A DNA stretch of 64,000 nt, taken from assembly GCA_964016885.1 (NCBI GenBank), contig OZ024760.1:6820001-6884000 (forward strand). The letters run 5' to 3'. Source of the stretch: Eledone cirrhosa. Its lineage: Eukaryota. The position numbers were made by a program, and so were the translations under genes. Position 1 is the first letter of the stretch. The number at the start of each line of letters is the position of its first letter. Shown here one piece after another: positions 11,771-41,655 of the stretch. The notes under the pieces were generated by a model, which worked only from the letters and a program-made list of their open reading frames with translations, was not told where the DNA came from and searched no databases.

Positions 11771-11942
11771 AGAGAGTTTTGCTGATGGTATACTGTGGTA
11801 CTCGGATAGGAGGTGAGTTACTCTGGGAGGAAATTCAGTTGTTCACAGTTGGACTGCTAACTCTACTGTGGGGGGGTGTTCACTATACTGGGACATTTCA
11901 CATTGTCATTTTTATATATATATAGATATATATATATATATA

Positions 11943-26890: not shown

Positions 26891-26924
<34 letters not shown>

Positions 26925-26968
26925 TATACGATATTAATAAATGGAAACTATATTTATAAAACCATATT

Positions 26969-27033
26969 TATTTCATTATATATATTTCAAGGATACCAAG
27001 TTACATTATGGCATGCCTTCATCAGACAAAATA
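26969..27033 (-). ncRNA. Type-I hammerhead motif in left arm of the 26921-27295 palindrome
   Basis: Minus strand: tattttgt CTGATGA aggcatgcca-taatgtaact-tggtatcctt GAAA tatata TA atgaaata. Stem I includes G-U pairs. The mirror copy on + at 27183-27247 has a stem III mismatch. Confidence 0.65.
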
Positions 27034-27856
27034 CAATATATAACAGTTTTATAAATAGACATTGACGTACCCCTTTAAAAAAATTGACCGTTGTTTTTGG
27101 AGGACATCAGGATAGTCAAAAACAACGGTCAATTTTTTTAAAGGGGTACGTCAATGTCAATTTATAAAACTGTTATATATTGTATTTTTTCTGATGAAGG
27201 CATACCATAATGTAACTTGGTATCCTTGAAAAATATATAATGAAATAAATATGGTTTTATAAATATAGTTTCCATTTATTAATATCGTATATCTACTCCA
27301 AATATTTGTCGAGTGCTTTATATCAGTTATAAAAATATTTGCTTGTTGTATCCCAACAATTTAAATAAAACTTTTGCATATATATACATATATATATTTA
27401 GATTAGAAAGTGAAAAAAAAAATATATATATATATATATATAATCATCATCGTTTGATGTCTATTTTCCATGTTAGCATGGGTTAGACAGGTTCTCCACC
27501 GAGGTCGGTCAGATGACCGTGTCTTGCTCATATAGAACCAATTTTGGCTTGGTTTCCATGGTTGGGTGTCCTTCCTAACGCCAACCGCATTTACAGTGTG
27601 TACTAGGTGCTTTTTGGCATAACAATAACGTGATAGGACTACCCCTATCATTAATACACTCAAGAAACCTCCTTTGAGATACAACCCAGTAGGAAGTCAG
27701 CTAAACCTACATAGGTTTGAGCTATAACAACAACATGACAGGACTGGGGTCCCCTTCATTAAAACATTAAAGAAACCCACAATGAGATACCAGGTATGAG
27801 GCCAGCTAAACTCGCATAAGTGGAAGTTGTAAATTTTCTATCATTTTCATTTTTAG

Positions 27857-27967
27857 GGGTCAGTATCTTCATACCAAAGGGTGCTCTACCAGAAGGGGCT
27901 GATCAAGAGATCTATTTCAACGTATGCCAGGACAACAATATTCTACCCCCTCTAGACAAAGAAAAAG
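27857..27967 (+). CDS. TJP1: ZO-1/TJP1 ZU5 domain, exon 2
   Basis: tttttAG|...|GTtcgt; (G)VSIFIPKGALPEGADQEIYFNVCQDNNILPPLDKEK(G), close to ZO-1 VSIIIPQGAIPEGVEQEIYFKVCRDNSILPPLDKEKG. Phase 1-1. Confidence 0.95.
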
Positions 27968-28009
27968 GTTCGTAATATACATAAAATATATATTTATATA
28001 ACTAATTAT

Positions 28010-28620
28010 CTCATTATTAAAATAGTATTTGGAACATAACTTAACAAAGGTTCTTACATAAACTACATGTAATTTTTTTTATATATGGTATTTTATAAAT
28101 GGTATTTGGAACATAACTTAATAAAGGTTCTTACATAAACTATATATAATTTTTTTTTCATATGTAACTAGTTGTCGCATTATTAAAATGGTATTTGGAA
28201 CATAACTTAATAAAGGTTCTTACATAAACTATATATAATTTTTTTTTTATATGTAACGAGTTGTCGCATTATTAAAATGGTATTTGGAACATAACTTAAT
28301 AAAGGTTCTTACATAAACTATATATAATTTTTTTTATATATAACTAGTTGTCGCATTATTAAAATGGTATTTGGAACATAACTTAACAAAGGTTCTTACA
28401 TAAACTATATATAATTTTTTTTATATATAACTAATTGTCGCATTATTAAAATGGTATTTGGAACATAACTTAATAAAGGTTCTTACATAAACTATATATA
28501 ATTTTTTTTATATATAACTAGTTGTCGCATTATTAAAATGGTATTTGGAACATAACTTAATAAAGGTTCTTACATAAACTATAATTTTTTTTTTATATAT
28601 AATTGTCGCATTATTAAAAT
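28010..28620. repeat. ~89-bp tandem repeat filling the intron between ZU5 exons 2 and 3
   Basis: tggtatttggaacataacttaataaaggttcttacataaac recurs about 7 times. Confidence 0.93.
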
Positions 28621-28701
28621 GTCTCTCGTTCCCCATGTCTCTCTCTCTCTCGCTCTCGCTCTCTCTCTCTCTCTCTCACAAACACACCAACTATTTTCCA
28701 G

Positions 28702-28845
28702 GTGAAACACTGCTGAGTCCGCTGGTTATGTGTGGTCCACATGGTCTAAAGTTTAACCAACCTGTAGAACTTCGTCTTCCACATTGTGCTTCTGTCAACC
28801 CAGACAGTTGGTCATTTGCCCTCAAATCCAGTGATTCCCCCACAG
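28702..28845 (+). CDS. TJP1: ZO-1/TJP1 ZU5 domain, exon 3
   Basis: ttttccAG|...|GTgcgt; (G)ETLLSPLVMCGPHGLKFNQPVELRLPHCASVNPDSWSFALKSSDSPT(G), the ZU5 signature SPLVMCGPHGLKF..PVELRLPHC. Phase 1-1. Confidence 0.96.
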
Positions 28846-29032
28846 GTGCGTAGTAACATTATTGCTGGATATATATTATATATATAATATATATATTATT
28901 ATATTATATATATTATATATATAATATATATATTATTATATTATATATATTGTATATATACTTATGTATAATATCAATATACACACTACACATGCTAGCA
29001 GAAAACCACCAGATTGGTGGGTTTTCTGCTAG

Positions 29033-29071
<39 letters not shown>

Positions 29072-29186
29072 GTAGGAGGTGAGTTTTATTGTAGTACAAT
29101 ATCACACATCAATCTAAAACTACTTTTCATATGTTGATTTAAAACTGCACTATCCACAAGTGTTTTTTAACCTTCATATCATGTCC

Positions 29187-29257
29187 TATTTTATCTGATG
29201 AAAACACAAATGTTATTGCATGATGATATTTGTTTTTGAAATGCGCATAATAAAATA
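29187..29257 (+). ncRNA. Type-I hammerhead ribozyme motif, sense to ZO-1
   Basis: tattttat CTGATGA aaacacaaatgttatt-gcat-gatgatatttgttttt GAAA tgcgca TA ataaaata. Perfect 8-bp stem I, long stem II, palindromic stem III (ATGCGCAT); predicted cleavage after 29249. Confidence 0.8.
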
Positions 29258-29537
29258 CATGGAACTCATTTAACCATCTTTTGATCTTATATATATATAC
29301 ATATATATATATAATATATATAATATAATAATATATATATTATATATATAATATATATAATATAATAATATATATATAATATAATAATATATATATTATA
29401 TATATAATATATATAATATAATAATATATATAATATATATATATTATATATATAATATATATATTATTATATTATATATATTATATATATATATGTATAT
29501 ATATATAAGATCAAAAGATGGTTAAATGAGTTCCATG

Positions 29538-29608
29538 TATTTTATTATGCGCATTTCAAAAACAAATATCATCATGCAATAACATTTGTGTTTTCATCAG
29601 ATAAAATA
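29538..29608 (-). ncRNA. Inverted copy of the 29187-29257 hammerhead
   Basis: Reverse complement of 29187-29257; no difference seen by eye. Confidence 0.8.
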
Positions 29609-29725
29609 GGACATGATATGAAGGTTAAAAAACACTTGTGGATAGTGCAGTTTTAAATCAACATATGAAAAGTAGTTTTAGATTGATGTGTGATATTGTA
29701 CTACAATAAAACTCACCTCCTACAT

Positions 29726-29758
<33 letters not shown>

Positions 29759-30362
29759 CTAGCAGAAAACCCACCAATCTGGTGGTTTTCTGCTAGCATG
29801 TGTAGTGTGTATATTGATATTATACATAAGTATATATACATGTAGATATGATACATCAAATAAAATCGTAATTGACAATATGTACAGAAATTGAATGAAG
29901 ACTGCGTTACACGGTCTTCTGTAATCAGTAACGTAATCTATGATGCATTTAAAAAAGATGATGATATATATAAACTGCATTAGGAGAAAATTAGTGACAG
30001 AAAATTAATATGTTTATTTAAGCGATCGCCACCGGAAGTGTTGACATTTGAAAATTTTAAAGAAGTGAATGTTTAAATAAATAATAAAATATATTTAATG
30101 AACAGCCACAAAATTTTAGTAGATAAATTATGTAATATTCATTGATTATTTATTCAAAGGGCGATGGATTGGCAGTATTGGTAGAGAGTCAGGCACCATG
30201 CTTTGAAGCATAGAGTTACGTCCCTTTATGAGCTGTGGCCTTGTGCCAAAAATAGAAACAATGATTTATTCAAAGTAATCAAACTTATTTTACAAACGGG
30301 ATAAAAAAAAAATAAACCGTACGCAATCCCACAGACCTTCCTTTATTATAGTTTAGATATAT

Positions 30363-30467
30363 AAAAAGAGTCAAGAACCCGAAGGGGTCCTGACTCTTTT
30401 CCTATTACCCACTCTACTCGCCCTAAGTATTGAGTACTCTGGTGCGTTATGGTCCACCTGGTATCTT
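30363..30467 (+). mobile_element. Fold-back + tail element, family A (short arm)
   Basis: aaaaagagtcaagaaccc-gaa-ggggtcctgactcttttt followed by the family A tail. Confidence 0.55.
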
Positions 30468-30725
30468 ATATATTTCCGTAGAAGAGGTAAAAGAAAGAGT
30501 GCTCTATGTGTAGTACAGAGCTATTTAATTACATAATAAACAACACAATATAATTATTCCATTACCAAAGGTTTCAGGAAACTAGACGATCTTAGCAGAA
30601 ATGTCCAGCATAACTTGACACTAAAGCTGGGTGCTCCCATTATGTTGTTTAGGAATCTTGACCCACCTCACCTGTGTAATGAAACTTGCTTAATTGTTAC
30701 ATCCATGAAGCCCCATATCATAGAC

Positions 30726-30899
30726 CAGGCATGTCAAAGATGCGACCCTTTACAAGCCCGCACAAAGGTTTTTACAGCACGAGGATAATATAAAATAAAA
30801 AATATTAGTTGAAATGTGTGCAATTAGTTATGTGTGGCCCTCAGACAACACATATGTGACCCATGTGGTTCTTGTGGGACCCTCAATTTGACATGCCTG
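30726..30899. mobile_element. hAT (Charlie-like) MITE
   Basis: Perfect 13-bp TIR caggcatgtcaaa/tttgacatgcctg; 8-bp flanks tcatagac/tcctagag (6/8 identical). Removing it restores the Helitron frame. Confidence 0.8.
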
Positions 30900-31074
30900 T
30901 CCTAGAGGCAACAATCATAACAGGTTGTCATAAAGGAGAAAATGTCTTTATTCCAAAAATTCTTCTCGTTTGAATTTAAGAGGCTTCAGTTTCCAGTCAA
31001 ACTAAGTTTTGTTATTTCAATTAACAAATCTCAGGGTCAATCCCTCAAGGTAGGTGGACTTGATCTCGCTACTA

Positions 31075-31778
31075 CATTACGGTCAGCAGCGATTTGCGTT
31101 GGACGAGGCACGTCTCTAAAATTGTCAAGAGGGCCGAGGGTGTCTTAGCATCACTCAGCAAGACCTTTGTCAGCCGCTCTCCAGATATCTATTTAAGGCT
31201 GTATACAGCTAGGGTGCGACCACACTTAGAATTTGCATCACCAGTCTGGAACCCCTATCTTGCTCAGGACATTGACCGCCTGGAAACTGTTCAGAGACGT
31301 GCAACCAAGCGAATACCCTCCATCAGGCATCTACCATACTCTGAGCACCTTGCTTCTCTGGGCATAGATTCATTGAGGCTCCGACGCCTGGCAACTGACT
31401 TGGTAAACACCCACAAAATTGTTAACCATGTTGCCAACAACAACCCTGAGTGCCTTTTCGATTTCCATGTGTCTAACACACGTGGACATGCCCACAAAGT
31501 AAGAAAACAGCACAGTTCCCATGGCTTTCGGAAACATTTTTTCACGCTCAGAGTTGCTGAGGCATGGAACAAACTACCTGCATCAGTTGTTAGCTGTCGA
31601 GACACTGCATCCTTTGAGGCCTCCATGCTTCCCGAGATCCGCCAACACTACAGCTAACACATACAAACATGTACTTCCCTGACATTTGTGTATTATTCTA
31701 TGTACTATATTGACGAGTTGTAGTGCACCTGAGCACTTTACACAATAATTTCATTATTATTATTATTATTATTATTAT
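31075..31778 (+). mobile_element. CR1-clade LINE 3' end (young, open frame)
   Basis: ITVSSDLRWTRHV...RPHLEFASPVWNPYLAQDIDRLETVQRRATK...; 3' UTR and (att)n tail. Confidence 0.92.
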
Positions 31779-32659
31779 AATTCACCTACAGTCAACTCTA
31801 TGTTGATTGCTCACGAGTTGGAAGCAGCAACAATTTATTCATTTGGACATCAACAAGAAATTACACAAGGAATAGCGTTTACCCTGAGGTGCTTCAAGAT
31901 TGACAGATTTTCATTTATATATATATATATGTTGATATATCAATAGTCGATGCATATGGGGGATGACCGCTGGGTAAAGAAGTGCCAAGAAATCCGAATA
32001 GAAGGAAGACGCAGTAGAGGAAGACTACGTAAATCATGGGCGGAGATGTTGAGAGCTGACCTCAGATCGCTGAAGCTCACGGAGGAGATGACGAAGGACC
32101 GTGACAAATGGAAAGATGCTGTGCTGAATAGGACCTATCCCACCCTTGCAAGCAGAGAAAAGCGGACGTAAAATGATGATGATATATATATATAGTAATA
32201 ATAAATGTGAAAACTAAAATCAGAACATCCCGTTAAGGGTGAAAGCAGCGATTCTTTGCTTAAACCTTAATCTGTACTTATAATAAATAAATATATATGT
32301 GTGTGTTATCATATTAGAGGTTTATATCTTACATACTCATACACTTATATATATAAATGATGTATAACATATTTAAAGTTAGAGACCATTACTACAAACA
32401 TGTTGTAGGTTCAAATCTTACAGATACTGCCCCTTGTTTATATATATATATATATATAGTAATAATAATAAATTTGAAGACTAAAATCCAAAGAGGGCTC
32501 GATAAGGATAAATATATATCAAATATATAAGAACCGTAGAGCAAATATTTATTAAAATAACAGATTAAAGTTTAAGCAAAGAATTGCTGAAGGGTGAAAG
32601 CAGCAATTCTTTGCTTAAACTTTAATCTGCTATTTTAATAAATATATATATATATATAA

Positions 32660-32869
32660 ATGGTAAACAGAAATAACAACACAATCGGTACAGTATATGG
32701 AAGGGTTATATTAGGTTAACGCTTCATATAGCAGGAAGAGGGTCTTAACGCTTGAAATAGCAGGAAGAGGGTCTTAACATTTCAAACGCTAGTCCTTCGT
32801 CAGAAGAAAGAATGAGAAATAAGATAGTTTGAGGGGACGGGCAGGTTGGAATTGGAAAAAATGTCTTTC

Positions 32870-32870
<1 letters not shown>
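32660..32870 (-). mobile_element. Penelope-like terminal repeat remnant (family B, copy 3) with degenerate hammerhead
   Basis: Similar to 4500-4690; core reads CTGACGA aggactagcgttt GAAA tg TT aaga, with stem II weakened. Confidence 0.6.
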
Positions 32871-32900
<30 letters not shown>

Positions 32901-33297
32901 TACATATATAACAAATTTAATATAAAAATGGCTTCTACAGAACTAGAACTGTTTCATTCGGGAGAAATCATCAGGAAACAATTCTAGTCCTGTAGAGGCC
33001 ATTTCTATATTAAATATTTATACTCTGCTATGTATTGAGTACCTTACCTAATGTGGTTACCCCGATTGAACCTGAGATAAACTTATATATATGTGAGGTG
33101 TGACATATTTGAACTTACAGAAGATTACCGCAAATGATGTGTCGTAGGTTCAAATCAACTCAAGAATGAGAAACAAGTTCCAGAAGAATGAAAGACAAGG
33201 TCAACTGCTTTTATTACAGACACACACACACACATAACAGATGAGGTGGGGCATAGTGGTTTCAAATCACACACAGATACACACACACATATATAGA

Positions 33298-33426
33298 AAT
33301 GAGGTATGGCATATTTAAAGTTACAGAGAATTACTGGAAATGATGTGTCATAGGTTCAAATCTTACATATGTCCACACACACCTTTATGAAGTTAACAGG
33401 TGAGGTGGGACATTGTAGTTTCAAAT

Positions 33427-33458
<32 letters not shown>

Positions 33459-36400
33459 ACAGGTGAGGTGGGACATTGTAGTTTCAAATCACACATATAT
33501 AAAACAGGTGAGGTGGGACATTGTAGTTTCAAATCACACACAGACAGACACACATATAAAACAGGTGAGGTGGGACATTGTAGTTTCAAATCACACACAG
33601 ACAGACACACATATAAAACAGGTGAGGTGGGACATTGTAGTTTCAAATCACACACACACATATAAAACAGGTGAGGTGGGACATTGTAGTTTCAAATCAC
33701 ACACAGACAGACACACATATAAAACAGGTGAGGTGGGACATTGTAGTTTCAAATCACACACACACACATATAAAACAGGTGAGGTGGGACATTGTAGTTT
33801 CAAATCACACAGACAGACACACATATAAAACAGGTGAGGTGGGACATTGTAGTTTCAAATCACACACACACATATAAAACAGGTGAGGTGGGACATTGTA
33901 GTTTCAAATCACACACACACATATAAAACAGGTGAGGTGGGACATTGTAGTTTCAATTCACACACAGACACACATATAAAACAGGTGAGGTGGGACATTG
34001 TAATTTCAAATCACACACAGACAGACACACATATAAAACAGGTGAGGTGGGGCATTGTAGTTTCAATTCACACACAGACACACACATACATATAAAACAG
34101 GTGAGGTGGGACATTGTAATTTCAAATCACACACAGACAGACACACATATAAAACAGGTGAGGTGGGACATTGTAGTTTCAATTCACACACAGACACACA
34201 CATATAAAACAGGTGAGGTGGGACATTGTAGTTTCAAATCACACACAGACAGACACACATATAAAACAGGTGAGGTGGGGCACTGTAGTTTCAAATCAAA
34301 CACACATATAAAACAGGTGAGGTGGGGCATTGTAGTTTCAAATCACACACACACATATATACATAAGGTATGACATGATTGAAGTTAAGTTGTAGGAGGT
34401 TCAAATCTTACATGGAAGTCAACCCTAGATATAAGTATTTTATTAAACCCTAGAATGAAAGACAAGGGTGACCCCTTGTATTACTCGAATCCCCGAGAAA
34501 GCCATGAACACCACTACATCAACATTTTCTCTTCTATATTGAAAGTAGGTTTATAAATATTAATTTTCACTATACTTTTGTAGCCGTCACGGTGGTCGTG
34601 TGGAAAGTATTAAAGATGGCGGTGATCCTGGTCTGGGGTTCGATTTCAGTCAGGACCTTCACTAAGGGGGTCTTACTAAACTTTTTCAGTTTTTTTTCTA
34701 TCTCTTAGAAAAAACTGAAAAAGTTTAGTAAGACCCCCTAGTGTAGGTCCTGACTGAAATCGAACCCCAGACCAGGATCACCGCCATCTTTAATACTTTC
34801 CACACGACCACCGTGACGGCTACAAAAGTATAGTGAAAATTAATATTTATAAACCTACTTTCAATATAGAAGAGAAAATGTTGATGTAGTGGTGTTCATG
34901 GCTTTCTCAGGGATTCGAGTAATACAAGGGGTCAACCTTGTCTTTCATTCTAGGGTTGACTTCCATGTAAGATTTGAACCTCCTACAACTTAACTTCAAT
35001 CATGTCATACCTTATGTATATATGTGTGTGTGTGTCTGTGTGTGATTTGAAACTACAATGCCCCACCTCACCTGTTTTATATGTGTGTCTGTCTGTGTGT
35101 GATTTGAAATTACAATGTCCCACCTCACCTATTTTATATGTGTGTCTGTCTGTGTGTGATTTGAAATTACAATGTCCCACCTCACCTGTTTTATATGTGT
35201 GTCTGTAGTTTCAAATCACACACAGACAGACACACATATAAAACAGGTGAGGTGGGACATTGTAATTTCAAATCACACACAGACAGACACACATATAAAA
35301 TAGGTGAGGTGGGACATTGTAATTTCAAATCACACACAGACAGACACACATATAAAACAGGTGAGGTGGGACATTGTAGTTTCAAATCACACACAGACAG
35401 ACACACATATAAAACAGGTGAGGTGGGACATTGTAGTTTCAAATCACACACAGACAATGTCCCACCTCACCTGTTTTATATGTGTGTCTGTCTGTGTGTG
35501 ATTTGAAACTACAATGTCCCACCTCACCTGTTTTATATGTGTGTCTGTCTGTGTGTGATTTGAAATTACAATGTCCCACCTCACCTGTTTTATATGTGTC
35601 TGTGTGTGTGATTTGAAACTACAATGTCCCACCTCACCTGTTTTATATGTGTGTGTGTGTGATTTGAAACTACAATGCCCCACCTCACCTGTTATATATG
35701 TGTGTGTGTGATTTGAAACTACAGTGTCCCACCTCACCTGTTATATATATATATGTGTGTGTCTGTATGTGATTTGAAACTACAATGTCCCACCTCACCT
35801 GTTTTATATGTGTGTGTGTCTGTGTCTGTGAATTGAAACTACTATGTCCCACCTCACCTGTTATATATGTGTGTGTGTGTGTCTGTGTGATTTGAAACTA
35901 CAATGCCCCACCTCACCTGTTTTATATGTGTGTGTGTCTGTGAATTGAAACTACTATGTCCCACCTCACCTGTTATATATGTGTGTGTGTGTCTGTGTGA
36001 TTTGAAACTACAATGTCCCACCTCACCTGTTTTATATATGTGTGTGATTTGAAACTACAATGCCCCACCTCACCTGTTATATATGTGTGTGTGTGTCTGT
36101 GTGATTTGAAACTACAATGTCCCACCTCACCTGTTTTATATATGTGTGTGATTTGAAAATACAGTGTCCCACCTCACCTGTTTTATATATGTGTGTGATT
36201 TGAAAATACAGTGTCCCACCTCACCTGTTTTATATGTGTGTGTCTGTGTCTGTGAATTGAAACTACTATGTCCCACCTCACCTGTTATATATATATATGT
36301 GTGTGTCTGTATGTGATTTGAAACTACAATGTCCCACCTCACCTGTTTTATATGTGTGTGTGTCTGTGTGTGATTTGAAACTACTATGTCCGACCTCACC

Positions 36401-36711
36401 TGTTATATATGTGTGTGTGTGTGTGTGTGATTTGAAACTACAGTGTCCCACCTCACCTGTTATATATATATATGTGTGTGTGTGTGTCTGTGATTTGAAA
36501 CTACAATACCCCACCTCACCTGTTTTATATGTGTGTGATTTGAAACTACAATGTCCCAACTCACCTGTTTTATATATGTGTGATTTGAAACGACAGTATC
36601 CCACCTCACCTGTTAACTTCATAAAGGTGTGTGTGGACATATGTAAGATTTGAACCTATGACACATCATTTGCAGTAATTCTCTGTAACTTTAAATATGT
36701 CATACCTCATT
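33298..36711. repeat. 3.4-kb inverted repeat with minisatellite-filled arms
   Basis: Outer unique segments 33298-33400 and 36600-36711, and inner segments about 34365-34700 and 34706-35015, are reverse complements; 5-nt loop at 34701-34705. Arms carry ~50-57 bp units aggtgaggtgggacattgtagtttcaaatcac. Confidence 0.92.
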
Positions 36712-37515
36712 AGTATAGAGAAAATTAATATTTGTAAACCTACTTTCCTTGTTGGTTGATAAACTTTGACCGTCACTTGGCTGTTATTTCCAGCAGATCG
36801 ACCAGCCACATACAGGGTCTTATTGGTTTACCTACCTAATATAGTAACACACAGACACACACACACATATGTATGTGTTTTAGGGGTCATGTTAGCTTGT
36901 TTACCTAATATAGTAACACACAGACACACATATGTATGAGTGTTTTAGGGGTCATATTAGTTTGTTTACCTAATATAGTAACACACACACATGTATATTT
37001 TAGGGGTCATATTAGCTTGTTTACCTAATATAGTTACACACACACATTAACGAGTGTTTTAGGGGTCTTATTGACTTGTATATCTAATATAGTTACACAC
37101 AGACACCCACACATGTGGTTTAGAGGTCTTATTGACTTACGTATATATCTAGTACAGCTCCTTTCTTCTGCCAGGAGTTGTTACTAAAAGATAGCAGCTG
37201 TGTAAAGAGCAATGACAACATTGTTTCTTTGGTCTCATCTGTCGACAATCAGCTTCTTTCTTTTCCTTTCTATATAATAATAATTGTTTCTACTTTAGGC
37301 ACAAGGCCAGCAATTACCCAGTGCATTACTGGTACTTTATTTTATCGACCCCGTAAGGATGAAAGGCAAAGTTAACCTCGGCAGGATTTGAACTCAGAAT
37401 GGAAAGGGCCGTAACTCTATGCGTCAAAGCATGGCGTCCGACCCTCTACCGATACTACCAATCCACCGTTTCTATATAATAATAATAATGTTTTTGTTTT
37501 TTTTTCCATCTGCAG

Positions 37516-37619
37516 GTCATCCTACACAATGGCAGAACCTCACTCTTGCTGGAATGGACGGTGTGGCCCATGGTAAAGTTGGGAAAAATAGTGTGTCGGT
37601 GTTGGTGGATCACTTTTAG
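37516..37619 (+). CDS. TJP1: ZO-1/TJP1 terminal coding exon
   Basis: ccatctgcAG|; (G)HPTQWQNLTLAGMDGVAHGKVGKNSVSVLVDHF*, matching the ZO-1 C-terminus VSVLIDHF. Confidence 0.95.
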
Positions 37620-37889
37620 TACTTTGTCCAAAAGAACATTTTGGCAATCGCACACAGATATTTCTTGCCTACCAATCAAATAACCAACCTACCTACCTTC
37701 CTACCAACCAACCAACCTACCTACTTACCAACCAAACAACCTACTTATGTACCAACTTACCTCCCTACATTTTTACTTACCTTCCAACCTACCTACTTGC
37801 CAACCAACAAACCAACTTACCTACCTATCTACTTACTTACTTACCAAGCTATCTACTTACCAAAGACACTGATTGACAAGAGCATATCA

Positions 37890-39495
37890 ATATCTTCTGA
37901 AATAACACTACACACACACACAGCTATCTTCTGAAATAACACTACACACACACACACAGCTATCTTCTGAAATAACACTACACACATACACACACAGCTA
38001 TCTTCTGAAATAACACTACACACACATACACACAGCTATCTTCTGAAATAACACTACACACACATACACACAGCTATCTTCTGAAATAACACTACACACA
38101 CACACAGCTATCTTCTGAAATAACACTACACACATACACACAGCTATCTTCTGAAATAACACTACACACATACACACAGCTATCTTCTGAAATAACACTA
38201 CACACACATACACAGCTATCTTCTGAAATAACACTACACACATACACACAGCTATCTTCTGAAATAACACTACACACACATACACACAGCTCTCTTCTGA
38301 AATAACACTACACTACACACACACAGCTATCTTCTGAAATAACACTACACACATACACACAGCTATCTTCTGAAATAACTACACACACACACAGCTATCT
38401 TCTGAAATAACACTACACACACATACACACAGCTATCTTCTGAAATTACACTACACACATACACACAGCTCTCTTCTGAAATAACACTACACTACACACA
38501 CACAGCTATCTTCTGAAATAACACTACACACATACACACAGCTATCTTCTGAAATAACTACACACACACAGCTATCTTCTGAAATAACACTACACACACA
38601 TACACACAGCTATATTCTGAAATAACACTACACACACATATACACACAGCTATCTTCTGAAATAACACTACACACACACACACAGCTATCTTCTGAAATA
38701 ACACTACACACACATACACACAGCTATATTCTGAAATAACACTACACACACATACACACAGCTATCTTCTGAAATAACACTACACACACATATACACACA
38801 GCTATCTTCTGAAATAACACTACACACATACACACAGCTATCTTCTGAAATAACACTACACACACACACACACACAGCTATCTTCTGAAATAACACTACA
38901 CACACATATACACACAGCTATCTTCTGAAATAACACTACACACATACACACAGCTATCTTCTGAAATAACACTACACACACACACACGGCTATCTTCTGA
39001 AATAACACTACACACACAGCTATCTTCTGAAATAACACTACACACATACACACAGCTATCTTCTGAAATAACACTACACACACACACACACAGCTATCTT
39101 CTGAAATAACACTACACACACATACACACAGCTATCTTCTGAAATAACACTACACACACATACACACAGCTATCTTCTGAAATAACACTACACACACATA
39201 CACACAGCTATCTTCTGAAATAACACTACACACACATACACACAGCTATCTTCTGAAATAACTACACACATACATAGTTATTTCCTGAAATAATACACAC
39301 ACATACACACAGCTATCTTCTAAAATAACACTACACACACATACACACAGCTATCTTCTAAAATAACACTACACACATACACGAATAACACTACACACAT
39401 ACACGGCTATCTTTTGAACTAACAACTACACACACACATACACACAGCTATTTCTTGCTTGAAATAACACACATATATACACACAGCTATTTCCA
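37890..39495. repeat. ~34-40 bp minisatellite downstream of the ZO-1 stop codon
   Basis: Unit cagctatcttctgaaataacacta(ca)n; preceded by a (CTAC/CAAC)n tract at 37668-37862. Confidence 0.96.
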
Positions 39496-40005
39496 GTGGG
39501 GTTACATTGCTGTTCAACCAAACAGGACTACAGAAACAGAGGACAGTGAAAGAGAATTTATAAAATGAAATAAAAAAAATAGAAGAACACTGACCACAAT
39601 CTGAAATATATTAGTTAAAAAAATTGTAAATATTCAACTGACATTGTTGTTAACTTTTTTGTTACTATATTTCTAATTAAAGACACTGCCTATGTTGTTC
39701 AAATCGTAAAAAAAAAATTAAAAAAAAATTTAAAAAAAAATGAAATTTAAGAGTATTTTTAGGGTAAATTAATGAGGCCGGTTATGATATGTATACTACT
39801 TCCAAGGGCTGGAATTGACCCTATCATCCAAAATACTGTATCAATAAACAGAAGCTCAATTGGACTTTAAATGGATTAAAATAAAACAATGAATTATAGT
39901 AACAACATCAATGTTTTTTTATATCAATATAAGAATTCCTATTCCCAAAACACAAATAAACCAGCACACACACACATACATATATACATATGTGTGTGTG
40001 TGTGT

Positions 40006-40204
40006 GAAAAGATTCAGGACCTTGACGGCTGAGCTCTGGCCCTTTCGACAGCTGTATCCAAACTCCATTCAGATCTAGCTGTCGAAATGGCTGGAGCTCA
40101 GCTGTCGGGGTCCTGAATCTTTTCGTATTACCCAGTCTACTGCCCCAAGTATTGAGTATTCTGGTGGGTTATGGTCCACCTGGTTTTTACCACACCTATC
40201 TGAT
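40006..40204 (+). mobile_element. Fold-back + tail element, family A
   Basis: Hairpin 40006-40124; the right arm holds a hammerhead 3' half, GAAA tggctg-gagct-cagctg TC; tail 40125-40204. Confidence 0.6.
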
Positions 40205-40288
40205 TATATATATCTCGGAAAAACCTCTTTCCTAGAGCTAATTTACTGTAATGAGACTATTTTGAGTTTCTAACTCAATACATGCCTT

Positions 40289-40326
<38 letters not shown>

Positions 40327-41002
40327 AATTAGAAAAAAACGTTTCATTTACATGTAAAGTATATTTATTGTGTTATATATATATTTTTTTGTCACATCGC
40401 TAGTCTGAAGAGCAGATTGAGTGGAGTCAGGTCAACAACTTCTAGGGCAAACCTTGAGCCAATCTTCTGCAAAATGTGCGTAACAGGTTGATACACAATA
40501 AATATCTTTTACATGTAAACAAAACTTTCTCGTTTTTTTCTAATATATACACTCTGTCTGTGCATAGAGTGTTTGTTTTGGTACCTACACCAGTAATTCA
40601 CTGACCCACCTACACTATATAATATATATATTTCATCATCATCATCATCATCATTTCATTTCATTTTACATCCGCTTTTTCCCTGCTTGCAAGGGTGGGA
40701 CGGGAACTGATTCTGGCTTGATTTCTACAGCTGGATGCCCTTCCTAACACCAACCTCATTTACAGTGAGTGCCTACACGAGCTTTTACCGTGGTGCTTTT
40801 ACCGTGGTGCCTACACGAGCACTTTGCAGTGGAATGATAGGGACTCCAGTCCCTATCATCTCATTTCTACAGCTGAGTAAACTGGAGCAATGTGAAATAA
40901 AGTGTCTTGCTCAAGGAAACAACACATCACCCGGTCTGAGAATTGAACTCACAACCTTTCGATTGCAAGGCCAATGCTCTAACCACTAAGCCATGTGCTT
41001 CC

Positions 41003-41038
<36 letters not shown>

Positions 41039-41039
41039 T

Positions 41040-41208
41040 TGAAAACAGCGATGAACTGGACTCCACCTGGCGACAAACGTTCCAAAAAGACTTGATGGCA
41101 GCCAACAACACTTGGCATGGATGCAAAAAAGCTGCCGCTAATCGTGACCGTTGGCAACTATTTACTGCTTGATGCGCTCAACGATGCGGAAGAACCTAAG
41201 ACTAAGAC
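41040..41208 (+). mobile_element. RTE LINE 3' end with (ctaaga)n tail
   Basis: KTAMNWTPPG..WRQTFQKDL...AANRDRWQ. Confidence 0.55.
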
Positions 41209-41655
41209 ACACATACTGTTATGTCCTGATGTACATGTGTGGATATATATCACCTTGATAACCTTGACCGACCAGTCTGTCGGGCGCTGCTGGTCACAGC
41301 ACGTCGTGCTGTTTTAGCCATAAGATAACGCCATCCCACTGGCTGGGCGGGCAAGCCGGCACCTCTTCATCTCATTTCTACAGCTGAGTAAACTGGAGCA
41401 ACGTGAAGTGAAATAAAGTGACTTGCTCAAGGAAACAACACATCACCCGGTTCGAGAATTGAACTCACAACCTTTTGATTGCAAGCCCAATGCTCTAACC
41501 ACTAAGCCATGTGCCTTCACGTGGATATATATATATATAGAGTAGTAAAAAACCGGGAGGTTATATCTAAAGTTGGTAGAGCACTCAGTCCAAAGTACTC
41601 AGTTCGGTATAGAGTTAGTTTGTTGTGGAACTAACTCTCCCCCTCTCTCTCTCTC

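Follow-up and report, generated by a model that had tools for sequence, protein, structure and literature searches.

What marks the two ends of a Penelope-like insertion? The question is raised by a 64,000-nt stretch of the 3.0-Gb genome of Eledone cirrhosa (contig OZ024760.1), hereafter the window, which is AT-rich, full of (TA)n and occupied by fold-back elements of dissimilar sequence, each with an inverted arm, a sense arm and a one-sided tail. In an initial annotation, six families of these elements were seen to carry a small ACTC-N11/12-GAGT stem at the boundary between arm and tail, and the stem was proposed as a cis-signal for the start or stop of copying. How Penelope-like elements (PLEs) recognize their RNA and how their inverted arm and one-sided tail arise are open questions, a single family having been studied in vitro. 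The fold-backs appear, from their sequences, to be pairs of truncated 3' ends of Hydra-type PLEs, the Hydra clade comprising PLEs with a C-terminal endonuclease (EN) (Craig et al. 2021, PMC8557442). A bulged hairpin is conserved in these elements, in two copies each; it is likely bound by their reverse transcriptase (RT) and likely sets its two start sites.

All six stem strings of the initial annotation were found in place. The pattern ACTC-N11/12-GAGT occurs seven times in the window against 1.14 expected and a maximum of three across 100 shuffles, an excess over shuffled AT-rich sequence; five of the seven are the annotated sites, and the other two, at 11800 and 49215, lie away from fold-backs. 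The fold-back layout was recovered at 26921, 30364, 32545, 32910, 40006 and 40328, but the 41.6-kb copy has no inverted arm, and the tails, given as 60-90 nt, measure 34-87 nt past the stem. The spacer did not stand. Family registers were set by comparing 20-30 genomic copies per family, and the register at 30416 proved to be a private mutation, family A having in general ACTC-N16-GAGT; that at 41597 is likewise private, the E41 family carrying ACTC-N12-GAGT 12 nt deeper in the tail, degraded here. A fixed N11/12 spacer was rejected since the real spacer varies across families and metagenome copies, from 8 to more than 60 nt. What is conserved is a bulged hairpin whose inner stem covaries: it opens with RCTC, 1-5 bp of inner pairing enclose a loop that varies, and the 3' strand bulges at TN before closing with GAGY, which RC follows. 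Its first pair alternates between A-U and G-C among families, one family having GTTC/GAAC. The loop is free to vary, as judged from a Hydra-linked family (L180, 1840-1983, minus strand) in whose first hairpin an insert of 60 nt separates the two strands of the inner stem.

Under this strict definition, 27 matches were found in 664 kb (the window and 60 evenly spaced 10-kb stretches) against 0-4 in ten shuffles; 23 lie outside the window, and 25 of the 27, judged by eye, reach a microsatellite in the next 90 nt or so. Across the genome, a tight pattern is matched 156,219 times, by repeat copies and not independent events, against 2,854 for a reversed control. Covariation was counted by script, the 5' strands being misplaced in a MAFFT alignment, and on the anchors only, inner pairs not being required. 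Among the 19 families with at least two copies, inner positions 5, 6 and 7 are paired in 17, 19 and 18, respectively, with four pair types each way. Watson-Crick pairs fill 47 cells against a shuffle mean of 22.4, and slid registers yield 8-16. Seven G-U pairs against one C-A are read on the sense strand, which favors sense RNA.

The same hairpin was found beyond this genome. Marine metagenomes scanned with a protein alignment yielded 78 contigs in 66 clusters. The strict definition is matched in 37 of the 49 testable clusters, either upstream of the gene or 45-120 nt past the hammerhead, and in none of 50 in-gene controls. With the anchors only, 77 distinct copies were recovered in 46 of the 66 clusters, the opposite strand giving nine anchors in six clusters. 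Position 5 is Watson-Crick in 76 of these copies (50 C-G, 25 T-A, 1 G-C) and position 6 is paired in only 54, so that the core amounts to 5 bp and the bulge. Twin hairpins stand 54-82 nt apart in 23 clusters. In six published Hydra consensi, the hairpin is by eye clear in three, partial in two and unseen in one, a consensus that stops before a tail; Hydra-1_Ajap shows it twice at its 5' start (PMC8557442). The twin hairpins go unremarked in the searched text of that paper, where neither a hairpin nor a stem-loop is mentioned.

The assignment to the Hydra clade was made by motifs, read from translations. The E27 unit ends a 3' untranslated region (UTR) behind a 708-aa frame (L061) with an RT and then a C-terminal GIY-YIG domain, in which YRDD and NVVY..YVG are read. 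DKT takes the place of DKG in E27, A and E32, and the RWK place is occupied by RWR, RWR and RWC, respectively. A CxCx5C linker, the lack of CCHH, and CxxC and CxH near the C-terminus were seen in E27 and E32; the EN frames of this type in E41 and A are broken or partial. The units of E32, A and E41 follow Hydra-type frames on the same strand, and the link with Penelope RT/GIY-YIG genes that the initial annotation looked for is thus present in four of its six families. Relatives at E ≤ 1e-20 number 354; Pfam and PDB searches gave no usable match. A single open reading frame, DKT, CxCx5C without CCHH, a hammerhead in the 3' region, a (TA)n target and an inverted 5'-truncated copy with a one-sided tail are all shared with the Hydra clade as described (PMC8557442), from which the elements differ by their tails past the stem (30-40 bp being stated for Hydra) and by E27 3' UTRs that reach about 1.9 kb. 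Specificity to the clade is judged from three comparisons only: neither of two tailed families associated with endonucleases of CCHH type has the hairpin (of three X64 slices, two end inside the tail), and no RCTC/GAGY hairpin is found in the letters of the element PAc given in Fig. S1 of PMC11167929. A DNA element of Helitron or MITE type, for which symmetric or subterminal inverted repeats and no RT link would be expected, was considered and rejected, the arms being copies, truncated to different extents, of a single 3' end that leads into an RT gene.

The elements are ordered as gene, 3' UTR, hammerhead, AU-rich stretch, hairpin 1, tail, hairpin 2 and next start codon, with hairpin 1 about 45-70 nt after the hammerhead and hairpin 2 about 20-75 nt before the start codon. 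The insertions target (TA)n and are flanked by TA. Their tail-less arms end just 5' of hairpin 1 and their tailed arms just 5' of hairpin 2, so that a hairpin copy follows closely on the 3' side of each end, and the ends fall at AU stretches that match the target. The distance from hairpin to arm end is nearly fixed, with modal values of 1-9 nt and a wider range in one family. TA-flanked tail-less arms end at -7 to -2 in 21 of 25 E27 copies, at -7 to -1 in 12 of 13 E40b copies and at -10 to -2 in 13 of 14 E32 copies; in family A, 23 copies end near -5 according to an earlier mapping biased by TA extension. Apparent ends at -64, -65 and -45 are neighbouring elements. Hairpin 2 was recognized at tandem junction L059, where it stands just past the tail end and is followed by the start codon, and 27 of the 29 junction loci of E27 have it beyond the end of the tail. 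Its presence in A and E32 was predicted from E27 before any pattern search, and at loci not flanked by TA it was found 4 nt (A, 13/18) and 6 nt (E32, 19/26) past the tail end. Overall, the offset is 4-6 nt in all three gene-bearing families for which a junction was found.

The two arms of an insertion are not equivalent. Among 104 classified head-to-head arm pairs, 100 join a tailed to a tail-less arm, two are tailed on both sides and two on neither; in the sets that were not picked by tail, 37 pairs have one tail, none has two and one has none. The tail-less arm is the longer at its 5' end in 42 of the 100 pairs, and at L051-L053 it holds more than 2 kb missing from the tailed arm. An arm that often reaches further 5' is not a fold-back copy of its tailed partner, and the choice between start and stop, left undecided in the initial annotation, leans to start.

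The cis-signal first proposed is supported by the covarying pairs, the near-fixed distance to the ends and the links to PLE genes, and from this anatomy we infer binding, priming and a dimer. In the mechanism we propose, the endonuclease would cut the (TA)n target on both strands, and each cut end would anneal to a short run of A and U adjoining the foot of one of the hairpins and prime cDNA there, on an RNA template not cut by the hammerhead. Head-to-head joining of the two cDNAs would yield a tail-less inverted arm and a tailed sense arm, the tail being the stretch between the two start sites, one per hairpin. If one RNA is held by a protein dimer, the one-and-one arm pattern would be explained. 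That the twin hairpin is specifically the loading signal of the Hydra RT, with a dimer holding both copies and priming from both (TA)n ends, is put forward tentatively, as an idea about as apt to fail as to hold. It has a partial precedent in vitro. With purified PAc, a Poseidon element, reverse transcription is initiated internally, at two positions that delimit the tail, both strands are cut and extended, a stem-loop lies at the initiation point and a dimeric protein is predicted (Frangieh et al. 2024, PMC11167929). This concerns one family, with an AC-rich stem-loop devoid of RCTC/GAGY, and no repeated or cross-family signal is described in the available part of that paper.

Several observations weigh against this interpretation. 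None of 5000 shuffles reaches 47 Watson-Crick cells, a result whose significance is overstated because the families are related; choosing the nearest instead of the outermost RCTC lowers pairing to 18, 17 and 14 of 19, and when the 11 single-copy clusters are included, positions 5-7 pair in 24, 25 and 26 of 30. The hairpins are weak (-2 to -9.8 kcal/mol), one folding in a different register, and only three of the six Hydra consensi show a clear one by eye. Hairpin 2 has a single inner pair in E27 and E32 and is degenerate at two E33 junctions and in family c6; it was not found for E40b, E41, E29 and E30b, the E40b junction search giving five matches, none of them a junction. Every mapped end lies in a TA-ambiguous stretch, and E33 ends at -8 to -4 in only 13 of 29 copies, others spreading to -21. 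No contiguous gene was found for E33 or E40b, both being grouped by the hairpin alone. A further 19 arm pairs were left unclassified, and the PAc start sites are used without strand difference, which does not in itself predict one-and-one arms (PMC11167929).

Among the alternatives, the one that survives best, while unlikely, is that the hairpins are an RNA handle for packaging, for control of translation at the start codon or for regulation of the hammerhead, the ends being set by AU-rich target pairing only. The closeness of hairpin 2 to the start codon and of hairpin 1 to the hammerhead would fit, as would the spread of E33 ends. Yet in three families both ends lie on the same side of a hairpin copy at a similar distance, many other AU stretches of the UTR are not used as ends and the non-coding E33 unit retains hairpin 1. 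Improbable, in our estimate, is a motif acting as DNA, either as an endonuclease recognition site or as an internal promoter element of the pseudo-long terminal repeat. The outer 4 bp and the 3' flank are conserved in sequence and elements nest side by side, the tail of Drosophila virilis Penelope is required for endonuclease recognition (cited in PMC11167929) and pseudo-long terminal repeats bear TATA/Inr-like promoter motifs (PMC3846280). A DNA site is hard to reconcile with a spacer of such variable length, covarying inner pairs, a one-sided bulge and sense-strand G-U pairs, and insertions target (TA)n and not the motif. Disfavoured as a sole mechanism, and very improbable, is a stop signal at which synthesis of an inverted arm would halt after fold-back self-priming: although self-priming has been suggested for inverted arms (PMC3846280) and E33 arms meet at a short natural palindrome, the longer tail-less arms speak against it, and a stop at hairpin 1 leaves unexplained the hairpin 2 just past the other end.

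The twin hairpin can be compared with structures of other retroelements. The eel long interspersed element UnaL2 and its short interspersed partner share a small RNA stem with an internal loop, common to autonomous and non-autonomous elements and needed for mobilization (PMC1636434); that hairpin lies inside the copied 3' tail, whereas here two hairpins are each just outside the end they mark. Non-LTR (long terminal repeat) retrozymes are short non-coding hammerhead units dependent on PLEs (PMC7229834; bioRxiv 10.64898/2026.07.22.740005), comparable to E33 and c6 with their tandem junctions; no hairpin or start signal is mentioned in the searched text of these sources. The elements, their hammerheads, inverted arms and tails were already known. 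No description of the twin hairpin was found in the literature searched, and subscription papers, Repbase entries or further supplements could hold one. A 20-nt structure beside both ends, conserved in dozens of distant families, offers an annotation marker for a very abundant repeat class (more than 150,000 pattern matches in this genome) and may tie non-coding hammerhead elements to partner enzymes. If it is a loading signal, the one-sidedness of the Penelope tail would be explained, and some 100 nt would make up a portable signal that could direct the insertion of any RNA lying upstream of it into TA repeats.

Of the hammerhead parts first reported in four families, those at 27191 (plus) and 32974 (minus) belong to complete hammerheads, as does another core at 27025 (minus). 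The 40405 core was confirmed, its relatives having a long stem II; only a GAAA half exists at 40084. The canonical form is present in E27, E33, E29 and E40b; E32 and E41 have one core change each at usually fixed places (CAGAAGA at L141 and L152, TTGAAGA at L126), and no canonical 5' core was seen in family A (L335). Such changes in abundant families suggest that hammerhead cleavage may be dispensable. The E33 unit is non-coding and about 150 nt long; upstream of it, the 30 loci picked by their hammerhead have nothing in common except inverted arms and a single tandem junction. Some 700 nt upstream of E40b were traced and no gene was reached. Tandem non-coding units with a type I hammerhead were found at E33 junctions L069 and L242 and at c6 junctions L222, L223, L145, L056 and L070. 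All 30 hammerhead-picked E33 copies (L228-L257) stop just 5' of the hammerhead at a short palindrome, which at two tandem junctions is the 3' foot of the degenerate hairpin 2. Possible causes are a single passage around a circular RNA, the start of an RNA or a joining event at the palindrome. The features of the window, with a seventh hairpin family (E30b) absent from the initial annotation, are listed in Table 1.

Table 1. Hairpin-bearing elements and their parts in the Eledone cirrhosa window.
Feature	Position	Strand
E27 inverted arm, tail-less, with hammerhead (core 27025)	26921-27099	-
E27 sense arm with hammerhead (core 27191), hairpin and tail; putative 3' end of Hydra-type PLE	27117-27378	+
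E27 hairpin 1 (4 bp, 2-nt bulge, inner stem)	27295-27314	+
Family A fold-back; tail interrupted by insertion at 30471	30364-30468	+
Family A hairpin 1, family register	30411-30435	+
E30b, seventh family; hairpin 30501-30521, first pair G-C	30471-30570	-
E32 fold-back and tail; long-loop hairpin 32497-32542; linked to Hydra-type gene	32457-32645	-
E33 fold-back, non-coding unit of ~150 nt; hairpin 33022-33040; complete hammerhead on inverted arm (core 32974, minus)	32910-33085	+
Family A, second fold-back; hairpin 40134-40157 degraded in this copy	40006-40204	+
E40b fold-back; hammerhead core 40405; hairpin 40551-40570; no gene link found	40328-40617	+
E41 single shortened arm with tail; family hairpin maps to 41583-41602, degraded; Hydra-type EN linked	41538-41640	-

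General scans added little. The best 150 Rfam matches, ahead of 274 weaker ones, are below threshold and are microRNA or small-RNA hits driven by microsatellites, and an inverted-repeat scan was dominated by TA repeats and uninformative. A blind fold-back survey called 32 of 98 cases tailed, a count that includes mis-set arm ends and other families and is unusable as a fraction.

Other structures lie among these elements. A 915-bp palindrome of 96% identity around a TA array (28939-29853) consists of two copies of a hammerhead element of family E29, which bears the hairpin elsewhere; both halves combine a short piece of tail with an arm that lacks one, which suggests a mirror-image duplication of the complete insertion. 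A further hammerhead element (32700-32870, minus strand, core 32803) contains an internal tandem duplication. Within 33220-36614, a 690-bp fold-back (34344-35034) with arms of similar length sits inside a 57-bp minisatellite whose orientation changes on either side of the fold-back. Decayed fragments at 30560-31050 and 31100-31650, read by eye, are presumably a PIF1-type helicase and an RT of a long interspersed element. Exons between about 26645 and 37572, also read by eye, encode what we take to be the ZU5-containing C-terminus of a ZO-1-like protein, and most of the elements are located in the introns of this exon set or just 3' of it.

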